Source: Prevotellaceae bacterium (GTDB lineage Bacteria; Bacteroidota; Bacteroidia; Bacteroidales; UBA932). From it: a stretch of DNA of 41,085 bases. Position numbers and translations under genes: made by a program. Shown here piece after piece: positions 5,120 to 12,146 of this stretch. Every line of letters begins with the position of its first letter. The stretch's first letter is position 1. The notes under the pieces were generated by a model. It had not been told where the DNA came from and did not search any database. It saw nothing but the letters and a program-made list of their open reading frames with translations. Where the stretch lies: NCBI GenBank assembly GCA_031281125.1, contig JAITFU010000030.1:1-41085 (forward strand). The letters run 5' to 3'.

Positions 5120-6214
5120 TTAATATAACAAATCTGACAACACCTTTGCCATCCGCAAAAATCCCAAATCGGTGAGGTGTACCCCGTCAACGGTGGCTTC
5201 GGCATCGCTTCCCGTGAGCTTATCGGCAGGGACATAAAAGAGGTTTTCAAATCCCTTACAACGTAAGAGTTCGTAAATATCGCGCCATGTTGCGTTCTTT
5301 TTGGCAATAGTTTGTGCCTCTGTCAAGTTAAACGCTATAGCCGGGAATAAGTGATTTTCAACCATATAAACAGGGGTATCGGGGCGGGCTTGCAAGAGTG
5401 CGCACATAAAGTCATACCCAAGTTGTTCAATCATCTCTACGGTACAATTGCCCAAACAATCAACAAAATAGGCTCCTGCATCAATTTTGGCCATCAAAGC
5501 GCCAATCGAGCTGTCCATACGGCCATTACCGCTGAATCCCAAATTGATCACTTCGCGTTGCAGGCTTCGTGCCATAATGGCCGGGTAGGCCATTCCGGGA
5601 CGCGTGGCGCATCCGCCCTGCGTGATGCTGGTTCCATAACACACAATCGGTTTCTCTGCCAAAGGTAAAGGGCTTAATGGAGTATATATATTTGCGGTAG
5701 AATCGATTCCGATCTCCAATTTGACCACTCCGTCGTAAAGCGGCAAGTGGAGCATAAACTCCTTTTCTGCTCCATCCATCTCCAAAATCAACATCTTTTC
5801 GTTCTCTTTTCCAGTTGCGGGAATGCCCGTGCCAACGTACCGCCACCCATCGTCATTCAGCACATATAGGTCCACACCCCGTACTCCTGTTGCAGCCATG
5901 TGATTCATACCAAAGCCACTCCGCACTATCCACCGGGCACCTATCGCTCTGCTGTTGCTCCGGAACCGCACCGCAATCCCTGCCGAATGCAACCCCAACC
6001 CCCATAATTCTGAACGGAAATCCTCCTTTTGCGACCAAGGCAAGCGTGTATAAGCCATACTGTCGGTATGCACCATGGCAGGCTCCGCAACGCTCCGTCC
6101 CATAATCCTAAACGCCTTGGCATCGTGATAAATAAGCTCCGATGATCTCTGCGCCATCAATACGGACGGAGAGATCAGAAGCAACCATAAAAAAAGTTTA
6201 CGTCTCATATTCAT
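5120..6214 (-). CDS. SGNH/GDSL-family hydrolase (esterase) with an N-terminal GxDLY-type domain, secreted
   Basis: 364-aa ORF. Signal peptide MNMRRKLFLWLLLISPSVLMAQ. GVRGVDLYVL (GxDLY motif) is followed by the block-I motif CYGTSITQGG and a C-terminal DGVHLTDLG (catalytic D..H). The start overlaps the miaA stop (ATGA). Confidence 0.8.
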   Translation of the reverse strand: MNMRRKLFLWLLLISPSVLMAQRSSELIYHDAKAFRIMGRSVAEPAMVHTDSMAYTRLPWSQKEDFRSELWGLGLHSAGIAVRFRSNSRAIGARWIVRSGFGMNHMAATGVRGVDLYVLNDDGWRYVGTGIPATGKENEKMLILEMDGAEKEFMLHLPLYDGVVKLEIGIDSTANIYTPLSPLPLAEKPIVCYGTSITQGGCATRPGMAYPAIMARSLQREVINLGFSGNGRMDSSIGALMAKIDAGAYFVDCLGNCTVEMIEQLGYDFMCALLQARPDTPVYMVENHLFPAIAFNLTEAQTIAKKNATWRDIYELLRCKGFENLFYVPADKLTGSDAEATVDGVHLTDLGFLRMAKVLSDLLY

Positions 6215-7170: not shown

Positions 7171-7226
7171 AGCTCAACGCTTTGACTTCTATATCTGTCT
7201 GTTATTTTTTTTTCTAAAAAGCATCG

Positions 7227-7234
7227 CAAAGATA
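7227..7234 (-). promoter_or_regulatory. -7 promoter box TATCTTTG upstream of miaA
   Basis: Plus strand CAAAGATA, about 57 nt upstream of the miaA ATG (7170). Confidence 0.45.
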
Positions 7235-7373
7235 CACTAAGTTTTCCACCACTCGAAAAAAGATGTAAATTTGCATTTGGTACATGACAAAAATAGAAAA
7301 ATATTTAATTTGAAATAGTTTGAGTAGATTTGTACTCGACCTTGATAGCTAGGGAGAATTGATAAAAAAATTT

Positions 7374-7381
7374 TATCTTTG
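7374..7381 (+). promoter_or_regulatory. -7 promoter box TATCTTTG upstream of the methyltransferase gene
   Basis: TATCTTTG on the plus strand, 50 nt upstream of the ATG at 7431. It lies inside the ORF-track N-terminal extension (7359), which argues against that start. Confidence 0.45.
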
Positions 7382-7430
7382 TAATTTGAGATTAAAGTGT
7401 CAAAAAAAGATATATACTAACTTTAAAGCA

Positions 7431-8537
7431 ATGGCAAACAGGAATTTATCAAGCGCAAAAAATGCGAGAAACGACGAGTTCTACACGCAATTTCACGACA
7501 TAGAAAAGGAAATTGCCGCCTATTTAGAATACAGCCCCGATGTGTTTCGCGGCAAAACTATTCTATGCCCCTGCGATGACCCTTATGAAAGCAATTTTTT
7601 TAAGTATTTTGCTTTAAAATTTAACGAATTTGGACTAAAAAAACTTATTGCAACTTGCTATGCAGGGTCGCCCATTGCAAATAGAGAACTTTCTTTGTTT
7701 CCGGATGAGAACGAAGAAAACAAAACAACAAGAAATCCTCACAAAATTGAAATTACAGATAACGACGGAGTGAGAAATTTATACGATGTTGAATTACTCC
7801 TTGCTAACGATAGAAATCATTTGACCCGTTTAAAAGGCGATGGAGATTTTAGAAGCAATGAAATAAAGAAGCTGAGAGACGAAGCCGATATTATTATTAC
7901 CAATCCACCCTTTTCGCTTTTTAGAGAGTTTTTGGCGTGGCTTGTAGAGGCGAACAAACAGTTTTTAATTATCGGCAATATGAATGCTATTACCTACAAA
8001 GAAGTATTTCCGCTAATAAAAGAAAACAAAATGTGGTTAGGTAGAGGTTTTAACGCGGGAAATGCTTTTTTTTCAACACCACTTGTTAAAGAGTATGCAG
8101 AAGGAGTTTATAATCCCGATACGGGTTTAGTCAAGTTTAGGAATTGCTGTTGGTTCACAAACCTTGACCACGGCAGGCGACACCAACCTTTACAACTAAT
8201 GTCTATAAAAAACAATTTAAGATATAACAAGAAATTAAAAGGCAAAGAGTTTTATGACCGATACGATAATTATGACGCAATAGAAGTGCCGTTTACAGAA
8301 ATGATACCTAACGATTATGATGGCATAATGGCTGTTCCAGTCAGCTTTTTAGATAAATATAATCCTGACCAATTTGAAATATTGGGTATAACTCAAAGAA
8401 ATGATGACCCATATAAAATAAAAAAATATACCAAAGCAGACTATCCTAACGCAAATGACTTAAATGCTCGTGGGGTTATTATCGTTGAAGGCAAACCCAA
8501 GTCAATGTATGCCAGAGTTCTAATAAAGAAAAAATAA
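7431..8537 (+). CDS. N6-adenine DNA methyltransferase, M.EcoRI-like family
   Basis: Frame of ORF 7359..8537, with the start moved to [21 protein letters not shown]-terminal KNxxDEFYTQ and CPCDDP...SNFFKYF blocks resemble my memory of M.EcoRI-type enzymes. Catalytic DIIITNPPF motif is present. Confidence 0.85.
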
Positions 8538-8545
8538 AAACAAAT

Positions 8546-9709
8546 ATGATAACAACCCTCAAAACAGACATTACAGTAAAAGATATTTGCGAAGGTTTTG
8601 TTTATAACGAATTAGAAGGCAAAGGTTTATTTGGGCTTTCTGGCAGGCTTACCATTCAGCCCGAATATCAAAGAAATTACATTTACGCTGACGGCAAAAA
8701 AGACGTTGCAGTTATTGAATCTATTCTCAAAGGATACCCTTTGGGTTTGATTTATTTCAATAAAGTGAGCGACAACGCGCTTGAAGTGCTTGACGGACAG
8801 CAACGTATTACAAGTTTTGGGAGATTTGTGACTAATAAACTTGCTATCAGAGATGAAAATGGAAGACCACAAACTTTCAACAGTATTGCTGCCGACAAAC
8901 AGAAAAAGATTTTGCAAACCAAACTTTTGATTTATGAATGTGAGGGTACAGAAAGTGAAATTAAAGAATGGTTTCGTACTATCAATATTGCGGGCGTTCC
9001 GCTCAACAATCAGGAATTGCTTAACGCTGTTTATTCAGGTCCCTTTGTAACGCTTGCAAAAGAAGAATATAGCAACAGCCAAAATACAAATATTCGAAAA
9101 TGGAGTGCATACATTGCAGGTAGCGCCAACCGTCAGGAGTTTTTGGAGTGCGCACTTGATTGGGTAAGCAAAAGCAACATTGGCGATTATATGAGTTGCC
9201 ACCGTTACGACGACAATATCAACGAATTAAAAACCTATTTTAACAGCGTGATAGATTGGGTTTCTACAGTTTTTACAGATGTAGAGAGTGAAATGCGCGG
9301 TTTGGAATGGGGACGACTCTACGAAACTTACCGAAAACAACCCTATAGTCCCAAAGAAGTTTCCCAGGAAGTGCAAAAACTCTATGCCGACCCTTACATA
9401 AAAAACCGCAAAGGAGTTTTTGAGTTTATTTTGGGTCGCTCAACTGACACAAAATTACTTGAAGTCAGAGTTTTTGACGAGGCAATCAAAAAATCTGTTT
9501 ATGCAATACAAACGGCAGAGGCAAAAGAAAAAGGAATTTCAAATTGTCTTTTGTGCGCGATAGGACACGATGCAAACAAAACAAAAATTTGGAATATTAC
9601 CGATATGGACGCCGACCACGTTGCTGCGTGGAGTAAAGGCGGCGCAACCGACATAAACAACTGTCAAATGCTCTGCAAAACACATAATCGGGCAAAAGGG
9701 AATAGATAG
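8546..9709 (+). CDS. DUF262 (ParB-like, DGQQR motif) domain protein with a C-terminal HNH endonuclease domain
   Basis: 387-aa ORF, 8 nt after the MTase stop. N-terminal [11 protein letters not shown] and [14 protein letters not shown] (DUF262 signatures). C-terminal [32 protein letters not shown] (HNH His-Me finger). Confidence 0.85.
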
Positions 9710-9743
9710 GATTGACAGCAAACGCGCATTGGCCCATTTTCCA

Positions 9744-11219
9744 CTAAAACCACTCCACGCCATTGGCGCCGTTGGCGCCGCCGTTAGCGCTGCCGTTTCC
9801 GCCGGCGCCGCCGGTTCCTATATTGGCGCCGTTTCCACCGCTGCCGCCCAAACCCGGATTAATGCTCCCCAAGCCGCCAATGGCACAAACCTTATTGGCG
9901 GTAGTGGATGCTTGATTGGGCAACATGAACGCCTCGATAATGATGGAGGTATAGGTTCCGCCCGGTTTTGACGGTTCATTGGTGAACAGAGTACTTCTGC
10001 CCCCCCCGCCACCTATGCCTGCACCACCCCCACCCAAGCCGAAATTTGTGGCGAAACCGGGGTCTCCATCACCGCCCTTTGCCGTGATGGTGCCGCCGCT
10101 GATGATGATGCCTTCTACACTTCCATCGCTGCCGCCTCCAATGCCTGCACCGCATAAAGTTGCGGTTGCCTCAATGGTGCCGCCGGTGATGCATATCATC
10201 CCGTTACTGCTGCCGTAGCCGCCTCCTATGCCGGCGGCGCCTTTGCCTTTAGCGACCACAGTGCCGTTGGTTATGGTGATGTTACCGGCGTTTCCATTAG
10301 CACCACCGCCAATACCTGCGCCCCCGTCTCCCATGTTGGAGATGGCCGTAATAACACCGCCGTTGATGGCAATGTTGCCGCCATTGCCTTTATTTCCGCC
10401 TCCAATGCCCGCGCCTGACCAGGAGGAGGTTGCCGTAATGACGCCTGAGTTGATGGTAATCGCACCGGCACTGAGGTTATTGCCTCCGCCAATACCCGCT
10501 CCAAAATCGCCACCTTTGGCTTCTAACGTTCCCGATCCATCAATGCTGAGCGTTGTACCGGCAGGCACTTGTATGCCGGCAGAATTATCTCTCCCAAAAA
10601 AGGTGTTGGAACTGCCCGTAGCTAAGGTCAGCAATACATTGGCGCCACTTCTTAGGAGAAAGGGACTTCTACCCATACTCAAACCTGTTATAGTCACATT
10701 GTCTAAGGTAATGGCCACGGTTGCATCATCTTCCACCTCAATGCGCCTCAGGCTGGCAACCGGTAACTGATTGTTCCCAATCACCTTTACTGACGTGCCG
10801 TCAAGAATGGTATAAACAGAAGTTGTGGCGTTATAATTCCACCCGTGACCGCTTATATCGGAGGAGGGAGCGCCGGACAAATCAATCACATTTAATTCAA
10901 AAGTCGCCTTGATTGCCACATCCTCTTCTGGCATTACAAAGAACGTAGTAATGGCACTATTGTTGTCAAGGAGAACAGTGCCGCCCTCCACCGTCCATCC
11001 TGTAAAGAAATAACAAGGATCCGGTGTAGCGGTTATGGTTACAGTTACGCCCTTTATGGCCTTGTCAGAAGGGACTGAACTTGCCGTACCGTTGCCGTCG
11101 TTACTCATGGTAATATTGTTGGAAACATGAATCGCCCAGGGAGGGCAGCTATCCATATCGGTACAACCCAAAAGGATCAATCCGGTAAAAGTTAATACGA
11201 AAAATGATTTATGTAACAT
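9744..11219 (-). CDS. Candidate independently translated lipoprotein with a Listeria/Bacteroides-repeat-like domain, a GAGIGGG beta-helix repeat region and a Gly/Asn-rich tail
   Basis: Internal ATG at 11219 (codon 310 of the long ORF), preceded by AGGAGG (11234..11229) with a 9-nt spacer. Encodes [19 protein letters not shown] (lipobox). GWTVEGG...IKATFE resembles the Listeria-Bacteroides repeat. Six [14 protein letters not shown] units follow. Confidence 0.5.
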   Translation of the reverse strand: MLHKSFFVLTFTGLILLGCTDMDSCPPWAIHVSNNITMSNDGNGTASSVPSDKAIKGVTVTITATPDPCYFFTGWTVEGGTVLLDNNSAITTFFVMPEEDVAIKATFELNVIDLSGAPSSDISGHGWNYNATTSVYTILDGTSVKVIGNNQLPVASLRRIEVEDDATVAITLDNVTITGLSMGRSPFLLRSGANVLLTLATGSSNTFFGRDNSAGIQVPAGTTLSIDGSGTLEAKGGDFGAGIGGGNNLSAGAITINSGVITATSSWSGAGIGGGNKGNGGNIAINGGVITAISNMGDGGAGIGGGANGNAGNITITNGTVVAKGKGAAGIGGGYGSSNGMICITGGTIEATATLCGAGIGGGSDGSVEGIIISGGTITAKGGDGDPGFATNFGLGGGGAGIGGGGGRSTLFTNEPSKPGGTYTSIIIEAFMLPNQASTTANKVCAIGGLGSINPGLGGSGGNGANIGTGGAGGNGSANGGANGANGVEWF

Positions 11220-12146
11220 GCCATCACCCCTCCTTTTCTTTCCCAGTCGGTTCCCATCCTTTTGCACAGCACCGGACTTTGCAGGAGAGGGTTTGGGCTG
11301 AGGTGGAAGATGATTGAGTGTACGCACCTGAAGCATAGCCGGTTTGCCATTAACTACACTATATACGACCAACCCAACCCCAATTATAATGAATGGAATG
11401 CTTAACCATTGTCCCATATCTAACGTCATCCCTTCCTCAAAAGCTACCTGCGTATTTTTGATAAATTCGATAAAGAAACGGGAAGTAAAGACCAAGATTA
11501 AGAAAATGCCCAAAATCATTCCGGTCTTCAATTTTGGTAAAAATCGTCTGTATATCCACAACAGAAGAAAGAAAATCAGTAGATAACACAAAGCTTCATA
11601 AATCTGAGTCGGGTGCTTTGGAAGCACCTCTCCGCGCCTAACAAAAATGAAACCCCATGGGAGAGATGTCTCAATGCCGTAAATCTCGGAATTGACCAAA
11701 TTCCCCAATCGGATAAAACAGGCTGCCAGCGCCGTGGGTATTGCAACCCTGTCCAACAGCCAAAAATAGTTGAATCCATATTTGGGACCATACTTTTTAA
11801 TATAAAAGAACCACACCCCAATCAAAATGCCAATCGTGCCGCCGTGAGAAGCCAGTCCGCCTTCCCACATCATCAAGATTTTGAGCGGATTTGATAGATA
11901 ATATTCGGGGTCGTAGAAAAAGCAGTGCCCCAATCGTGCCCCAATCGCTGCAGAAAAGAAGACGATATAGGCCAATGGCTCCACAAGTGAGATGGGTAGT
12001 TGCTCCCGTCTAAAAAAATTCCGCATTATAAAGAAACCGGTAACAAATCCCAATACAAATAGAATCGAGTAATACCTAAACGAATAGGAACCAATAGTAA
12101 AAATGTCGGGATTAAAATCCCAAGTAACAGATAACAAGTGATTCAT
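9744..12146 (-). CDS. lgt: Prolipoprotein diacylglyceryl transferase (Lgt) ORF that continues in frame, with no stop, into a lipoprotein precursor
   Basis: 800-aa ORF. Residues 1 to about 270 carry Lgt motifs: [38 protein letters not shown]. There is no stop before a second signal peptide at residue 310. Confidence 0.85.
10000..10525 (-). repeat. Coding tandem repeat array, about 87-90 nt (29-30 aa) units, GAGIGGG-x-G-x-I-x-I-x-x-G type
   Basis: The plus-strand complement of GAGIGGG (ccNccNccaatNccNgcNcc) recurs near 10009, 10135, 10222, 10309, 10399 and 10492. The protein shows repeated GAGIGGG...[10 protein letters not shown]-like units. Confidence 0.8.

Follow-up and report, generated by a model that had tools for sequence, protein, structure and literature searches.

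A short AT-rich insert in contig JAITFU010000030.1 of a Prevotellaceae bacterium (assembly GCA_031281125.1) couples the gene for an EcoRI-family DNA methyltransferase (methylase, M) to the gene for a DUF262-HNH nuclease (R), and it raises the question of which of the two proteins selects the DNA to be cut. The window, defined as the whole stretch analysed, is 41,085 nt long. Comparison with homologous loci indicated with high confidence that the pair is a restriction-modification (R-M) module of the family of BanLI, a system from Bifidobacterium animalis subsp. lactis. This reading is well supported because M-R synteny and the BanLI experiments both speak for it. With moderate confidence, we propose the fuller statement that this R-M module employs a generic nuclease without sequence specificity of its own, which would take its target information from the methylase.

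The sequence-only reading of this locus had recognised an AT-rich insert between miaA and an lgt open reading frame (ORF), with two genes 8 nt apart: an M.EcoRI-family N6-adenine methylase, followed by a protein combining DUF262 (DGQQR) and HNH signatures. All these descriptions were borne out. The insert (7171-9743) has a GC content of 36.6%, compared with 45.7% in the remaining window. It contains two ORFs on the same strand (Table 1) and is flanked, according to Pfam, by miaA (PF01715, IPPT) and an 800-aa Lgt fusion (PF01790). The first gene product matched PF13651 (EcoRI_methylase) over its full length (E 1.7e-124, profile positions 1-345 of 345), contained DEFYTQ (nt 7473-7490) and the catalytic NPPF of motif IV (nt 7902-7913), and was 40% identical to the true M.EcoRI over the full length. 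In the second product, Pfam searches found GmrSD_N/DUF262 at the N-terminus (PF03235, E 1.5e-21) and HNH at the C-terminus (PF01844, residues 352-387, E 2e-7); its motifs are YQRNY (8666-8680), DGQQR (8792-8806), TINIAG (8978-8995) and DADH...NCQMLC...THNR (9608-9691). Alignment of 121 relatives revealed invariant residues in both domains: Q42, R43, E80, D83, G84, Q85, Q86, R87 and N147 in DUF262, and four cysteines (C334, C337, C373, C377), D357-H358, N372 and N381 in HNH. Since the YQR, DGQQR and HNH residues and the cysteines are all invariant, both the nucleoside triphosphate (NTP) site and the zinc-HNH site look intact. Scanning the nuclease gave no match to DUF1524 (PF07510), only HNH (PF01844/PF14279) with its four invariant cysteines, and the helical middle region of 170 residues had no Pfam match even at E <= 10. 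A fold search with an AlphaFold model (predicted local distance difference test score 79) returned BrxU as the best hit, a weak one (E 2.9e-3); BrxU and the CTPase domains of ParB were the best matches of DUF262, all weak, and the HNH domain matched Gme HNH (4h9d) and McrA (6ghc). By analogy with BrxU, SspE and ParB, the binding or hydrolysis of NTP by DUF262 probably controls the HNH domain. A sequence search of the PDB identified no relative of either the methylase or the nuclease.

The closest system with experimental data is BanLI, described in 2014 with the gene order integrase, M.BanLI, R.BanLI (PMC3990576). Its authors aligned M.BanLI with M.EcoRI, and single-molecule real-time (SMRT) sequencing identified N6-methyladenine (m6A) in only one strand of the motif, RTC(m6A)GG. 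P1vir plated approximately 10-fold less well in the presence of the cloned RM pair, and pre-methylation by M.BanLI increased transformation 1.8-fold (PMC3990576). We retrieved the BanLI locus by scanning gut metagenome contigs for the published cloning primer and verified it by the methylase, which matches B. animalis accessions exactly. The window nuclease aligns with R.BanLI over the full length at 39% identity (E 8e-93, residues 9-387 against 8-372), and the methylases share 51% identity across 320 aa. PADLOC labelled the window pair MTase_II (PDLC03297, 331 bits) and REase_II (PDLC03418, positions 6-371 of 372, 277 bits, E 6e-83). R.BanLI itself scored 905 bits over the whole of PDLC03418 (1-372/372), and this model is therefore effectively R.BanLI. 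Both marks of a BanLI-type pair were found, i.e. a full-length homologue of R.BanLI and, immediately upstream in the same orientation, an EcoRI-family methylase whose motif IV is intact. Beyond the M-then-R order, the two systems share the EcoRI-family methylase, a nuclease made of DUF262, a helical region and a zinc-HNH domain, similar protein sizes, a GC content below that of the host and a mobile context. They differ in that the window nuclease belongs to another clade (387 aa, against 360-372 aa in the BanLI-like clade), that an integrase adjoins BanLI but not the window pair, and that the window methylase carries another variable C-terminal segment (cassette B, see below); because of this last difference, the window site is probably unlike that of BanLI.

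Contrary to the premise that DUF262 nucleases lack a cognate methylase, which had made the combination appear unrecognised, PDLC03418 is a model of a Type II restriction enzyme and a 2026 Bifidobacterium paper reports that REBASE places a "DUF262 domain-containing protein" of B. animalis among the Type II REases, with the site RTCAGG (PMC13091528). The window pair is a copy of a kind already catalogued (BanLI, REBASE, PADLOC) and poorly characterised. As such it is ordinary, one more copy of a listed Type II R-M system. Its importance lies in the family, which is very large yet essentially uncharacterised, the sole experimental study (on BanLI) having called the system "incomplete". Literature searches combining DUF262 with HNH or EcoRI, or ParB-like with HNH, returned no mechanistic study of the DUF262-HNH architecture.

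A word-based database search returned at least 8000 candidate nucleases, the best 120 matches being all 387 aa long and 81-91% identical. An exhaustive search among 50%-identity representatives yielded 442 clusters at E <= 1e-30, most of which share the architecture of about 380 aa. Scanning species-representative genomes revealed at least 586 nuclease loci; the 80 that were fetched encode nucleases 70-84% identical, in Bacteroidota, Chloroflexota, Patescibacteria, Omnitrophota, Elusimicrobiota, Verrucomicrobiota, Planctomycetota, Bacillota, Pseudomonadota, Actinomycetota and one DPANN archaeon. Altogether the family is spread over more than 15 phyla, plasmids and (pro)phages, with viral copies on 348 IMG/VR contigs (188 + 160). 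Looking up names for the clusters of ten 50%-identity representatives gave nothing informative. The 90%-identity cluster of one 391-aa nuclease (P0241) included two 370-aa members (P0392 and P0402) named "adenine-specific methyltransferase EcoRI family protein", which may be a clustering or labelling artefact, or a trace of fused gene calls.

When all fetched loci with enough flanking sequence were pooled, an EcoRI-family methylase was found in cis at 230 of 234, nearly always directly upstream and on the same strand; the commonest M-R junction was a 4-nt ATGA overlap (27 of 68 pairs). With such extreme E-values and a pair recurring in hundreds of genomes, the matches are not due to chance. 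The suggestion of an R-M-like pair was thus upheld, both by this linkage and by the fact that BanLI methylates and weakly restricts (PMC3990576), and a nuclease usually found without a methylase, which would have spoken against it, is the opposite of what the 230 paired loci show. The linkage also bears on the possibility of a modification-dependent (Type IV) nuclease directed against modified phage DNA, or of a pair that is mainly a selfish addiction cassette, the methylase having another role. Type IV enzymes are the best-known members of the DUF262 lineage (PMC4619093), and the pair is mobile, occurring in unrelated contexts, on plasmids and in phages. Under a Type IV role, however, 98% co-occurrence with a single methylase family would make no sense, and an m6A-dependent nuclease next to an m6A methylase would be suicidal; moreover, M.BanLI methylation raised transformation and RM.BanLI lowered phage plating (PMC3990576). 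We therefore regard this explanation as highly improbable.

The mobility is apparent from close relatives, whose contexts are unrelated (within a thi operon near an AbiEii toxin-antitoxin pair, or beside htpG/uvrC), so that the pair behaves as a mobile two-gene cassette. In an 87% identical close relative (L174, 4805-10197), the pair lies within a thiamine-biosynthesis operon that also hosts HicAB and a DUF6088-AbiEii toxin-antitoxin pair; here, small cassettes for defence or encoding toxin-antitoxin pairs have built up between the genes of a housekeeping operon. One of the rare lone nucleases (L117, 4001-8434; 71% identical) had no methylase within 4 kb upstream. It is directly followed by a gene for a 1076-aa KAP-family P-loop NTPase, and the upstream 1.2 kb holds no ORF of 100 aa or more. 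At a Mollicute locus (L094, 5001-7067; TGA read as Trp), a single protein of 688 aa (P0310) joins an EcoRI-methylase-like domain to DUF262-HNH, the methylase-like part being degenerate (FPSF instead of NPPF in motif IV, AGDG instead of CDDP). Judged from its sequence, this fusion hints at physical coupling of M and R. Next to it lie genes for an ABC transporter and a lipoprotein-like product, and no second methylase is nearby.

To compare the evolution of the two partners, 65 pairs of the window's clade were analysed in 2080 pairwise comparisons. The nuclease was more conserved than its own methylase in 99.2% of these, with a mean identity of 72.9% against 56.1% and a Spearman coefficient of 0.36 over the 65 pairs. 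Orthodox Type II pairs usually display the opposite pattern, the nuclease being less conserved than the methylase. The methylase proved to be a mosaic with hypervariable cassettes, typed in 198 M-R pairs. Cassette B, located between FEILG and Y-x-R-I-L-I-K, exists as discrete, mutually unalignable types of 17-90 residues, with at least 52 unrelated types among the 198 methylase genes; cassette A has 17 types. The two assort almost independently (adjusted mutual information 0.06, 108 A×B combinations). Identity within cassette B was 0.57-0.59 inside a type and 0.08-0.13 across types. The ratio of identity within to between cassette types was about 1.0-1.4 for other methylase blocks and 1.00 for all nuclease blocks, and this block-by-block test detected neither a hypervariable segment in the nuclease nor a nuclease block co-varying with cassette B.

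Cassettes appeared to be exchanged between otherwise similar loci. In 87 cases, nucleases at least 90% identical adjoin differing cassette-B types, and in 24 of these 87 the methylase cores are also at least 85% identical. A clean swap was observed between L071 and L080, with methylase cores 91% and nucleases 93% identical and a wholly different cassette B. Sixteen of the 30 cassette types with several members are shared by the two nuclease clades, whose mutual identity is only about 40%, and the cassette-B type of M.EcoRI recurs in a DUF262-HNH-linked methylase of Gillisia (L059). One methylase C-terminus (L076, around 5449-6004) contains a tandem duplication, consisting of an EcoRI-type cassette, an (ER)n repeat and a second GVPISFLDKY...cassette; this suggests a recombination intermediate of cassette exchange.

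Gamma-class methylases bear their recognition domain in the C-terminal part (Malone-Blumenthal-Cheng topology), and cassette B presumably belongs to the target-recognition region. Family members with differing cassettes have differing sites, namely GAATTC for M.EcoRI and RTCAGG for M.BanLI (PMC3990576). We infer that specificity is set by the cassettes and that recognition by the nuclease would depend on the methylase, because the cassettes are C-terminal, the sites differ with them, the nuclease has no variable segment and does not co-vary with them, and in BanLI a single methylase marks one strand. The data suggest a modular specificity that is located in the methylase.

These results have to be weighed against an orthodox Type II system (IIP or IIS), in which the nuclease reads a fixed sequence itself, all methylases of the clade share that site and the cassettes are irrelevant to specificity. 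Isospecific methylases can diverge strongly, M.EcoRI is independent of its nuclease, and the helical middle of 170 residues, which matches no Pfam family, could house a recognition domain; REBASE and PADLOC also file such pairs as Type II (PMC13091528). Yet cassettes that are kept inside a type, cleanly swapped between near-identical genes and common to two nuclease clades of about 40% identity form the usual signature of specificity switching. The sites of M.EcoRI and M.BanLI differ, although these enzymes diverge from each other about as much as members of the clade do. The nuclease has no hypervariable segment, and the way BanLI methylates an asymmetric site, on one strand, is at odds with orthodox Type IIS protection (PMC3990576, PMC2582602). 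We consider the orthodox scheme plausible, though less likely than a generic nuclease. The cassette analysis argues against independent recognition by an orthodox nuclease, which makes one option of the sequence-only reading, a defence pair whose logic has not been worked out, an apt description.

In the mechanism we favour, the EcoRI-family methylase would mark host DNA with m6A at a site set by its own variable cassettes, and the co-transcribed DUF262-HNH protein would cut DNA without this mark. The nuclease would be a generic, conserved effector in which a ParB-like NTP-binding switch gates a zinc-HNH cutter, obtaining both target and self/non-self information from the methylase. The preferred route would be an M-R complex, as formed by Res with Mod in Type III systems; alternatively, the nuclease could sense the methyl mark directly. 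Marking a single strand is enough for Type III and MmeI-type systems, whereas for orthodox Type IIS systems it does not suffice (PMC2582602), and one methylase per nuclease is the conserved state across the family, as in BanLI. The one-strand mark of BanLI and the single methylase of the whole family therefore argue against the view of an incomplete system; the comparative data speak for a single methylase and a DUF262-HNH nuclease as the complete, conserved design.

Direct sensing could also operate without any M-R complex: DUF262 would sense m6A regardless of the flanking sequence, and the mark would license or disarm the enzyme, as phosphorothioate does for SspE. The characterised DUF262 proteins GmrSD, BrxU and SspE recognise modifications in DNA and link this recognition to the hydrolysis of NTP (PMC10952713, PMC12065111). 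If the nuclease read the mark, its fit with any cassette would be accounted for, and genes inserted between M and R are tolerated. On the other hand, evidence for an m6A-binding pocket is absent, m6A deposited by Dam-like or other host methylases would confound a context-free reader, and the Mollicute fusion with its degenerate methylase-like domain speaks for physical coupling. Such sensing is, in our view, improbable.

Several observations weigh against a generic nuclease guided by its methylase. The cassettes could be tolerant surface loops shuffled by recombination. M.EcoRI acts as a free monomer beside an unrelated orthodox nuclease, R.EcoRI, and the methylase family therefore needs no partner. 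About 15% of the loci hold other genes between M and R, which is compatible with a complex and not evidence for one. The fold search with the nuclease yielded nothing at E <= 0.001; with only weak matches, a structural template is absent. Site avoidance was uninformative, as the observed/expected ratios of 4-6-mers (Markov and mononucleotide models; 0.86 Mb of loci, the window, and each cassette type) disclosed only generic palindrome avoidance. BanLI restriction is weak, and its authors' verdict was an "incomplete Type IIS" system missing a second methylase (PMC3990576).

GAATTC occurs twice in the window, compared with 11.8 expected, a shortage that is unexceptional because many 6-bp palindromes are wholly absent. 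CTCGAG, GTCGAC, GAGCTC, CAGCTG, GACGTC, GCTAGC, CCTAGG, ACTAGT, GTATAC and GGGCCC were each found zero times, against 5-12 expected from base composition; this suggests a host long exposed to many R-M systems. Insertions between M and R were seen at L005, L009, L020, L021, L025, L035, L039, L040 and L074, as well as at L139 (3127-3978). The passengers include RhuM, Bro-N, MUG113/GIY-YIG-like, a D12 Dam-type methylase with a ParB-like ORF, Schlafen AlbA_2 with HATPase_c_4, and DUF2806. Such passenger genes are frequent inside Type I R-M operons.

Like GmrSD, BrxU and SspE, the window nuclease has an N-terminal ParB/Srx-like DUF262 domain with an invariant DGQQR, a helical region and a C-terminal His-Me-finger nuclease; unlike them, it carries a zinc-finger HNH (PF01844) instead of DUF1524, and its family is tied to its own methylase (230/234), whereas those three, as stand-alone or accessory enzymes, target modified DNA or sense it. 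The proposed logic resembles Type III (EcoP15I), with variable recognition in the methylase and a conserved NTP-using nuclease subunit, and BanLI likewise marks one strand of an asymmetric site. The reassortment of cassettes beside a constant nuclease is in keeping with this logic. Instead of a superfamily 2 (SF2) helicase motor and PD-(D/E)XK, however, the window nuclease has a ParB-like NTPase and HNH; the methylase is from another family, and the M-R complex and two-site requirement are here only putative. EcoRI has the same methylase family, but R.EcoRI is an unrelated PD-(D/E)XK homodimer which reads GAATTC itself, and the gene order is R then M. In MmeI-type (Type IIL/IIG) enzymes, a single methylase activity can protect the host by one-strand m6A, and recognition is common to methylation and cleavage (PMC2582602); MmeI differs in that its one polypeptide contains a PD-ExK nuclease and lacks an NTPase. 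Menshen (NsnABC) and PD-T4-2 were considered and rejected: only the DUF262 half matches NsnA and PD-T4-2_A, the partners (NsnB/NsnC, an ATPase and an OLD nuclease, or HEPN) are absent, and the neighbours are miaA and lgt.

Tentatively, the family could represent an R-M class distinct from orthodox Type II. It would combine a mosaic methylase with swappable cassettes, marking some sites on one strand, with a universal ParB-like, NTP-gated HNH nuclease that would rely on nucleotide-dependent clamping or sliding, and not on a helicase motor, to find and cut unmarked DNA. If this is true, a ParB-like NTPase would join the short list of engines that drive restriction, one-strand protection in the BanLI family would be explained, and the nuclease-methylase pair would be naturally retargetable by swapping one methylase cassette of 20-90 residues. 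One constant ParB-like/HNH nuclease facing many methylase cassettes is a testable lead to Type III-like logic built from different parts.

Table 1. Positions in the window of the methylase-nuclease pair, its domains and cassettes, and the surrounding intergenic elements.
Feature	Position	Strand	Remarks
Intergenic region with divergent Bacteroidota-type promoter boxes	7171-7430	.	Two TATCTTTG copies
TATCTTTG box, minus copy	7227-7234	-	Ahead of miaA
TATCTTTG box, plus copy	7374-7381	+	About 50 nt ahead of the methylase ATG
EcoRI-family N6-adenine DNA methyltransferase, 368 aa, 42.8 kDa	7431-8537	+	PF13651; PADLOC MTase_II
Methylase variable cassette A, residues 205-239	8043-8147	+	Window type A1
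Methylase hypervariable C-terminal cassette B, residues 321-360	8391-8510	+	Between FEILG and YARVLI; window type 2
Spacer from methylase stop to nuclease ATG, 8 nt	8538-8545	+	Operon junction
DUF262-HNH nuclease, 387 aa, 44.1 kDa	8546-9709	+	R.BanLI homologue; PF03235 + PF01844; PADLOC REase_II
DUF262/ParB-Srx-like NTPase domain, residues 36-163	8651-9034	+	PF03235
Zinc-finger HNH domain	9545-9706	+	PF01844; C334-x2-C337, D357-H358, N372, C373-x3-C377, N381
Gap to the convergent lgt-fusion gene, 34 nt	9710-9743	.	Right edge of the insert

The TATCTTTG boxes we take to be promoters, on the model of the known Bacteroides TAnnTTTG -7 motif, and the minus-strand copy probably serves miaA. The methylase likely starts at ATG 7431 and not at TTG 7359, because homologues align from MANRNL and the plus-strand box sits downstream of 7359. 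Flanking repeats, a recombinase gene and a terminator were looked for at the insert edges, and none was found. The neighbouring lgt ORF (9744-12146, minus strand) encodes a protein of 800 aa in which Lgt (residues 13-262) is fused to an InlB B-repeat and beta-helix repeats. Its tail is rich in Gly, Ala and Asn and is coded by a stretch of 60% GC (9750-10500), which contains direct repeats with a 12-nt period at 9760-9846.

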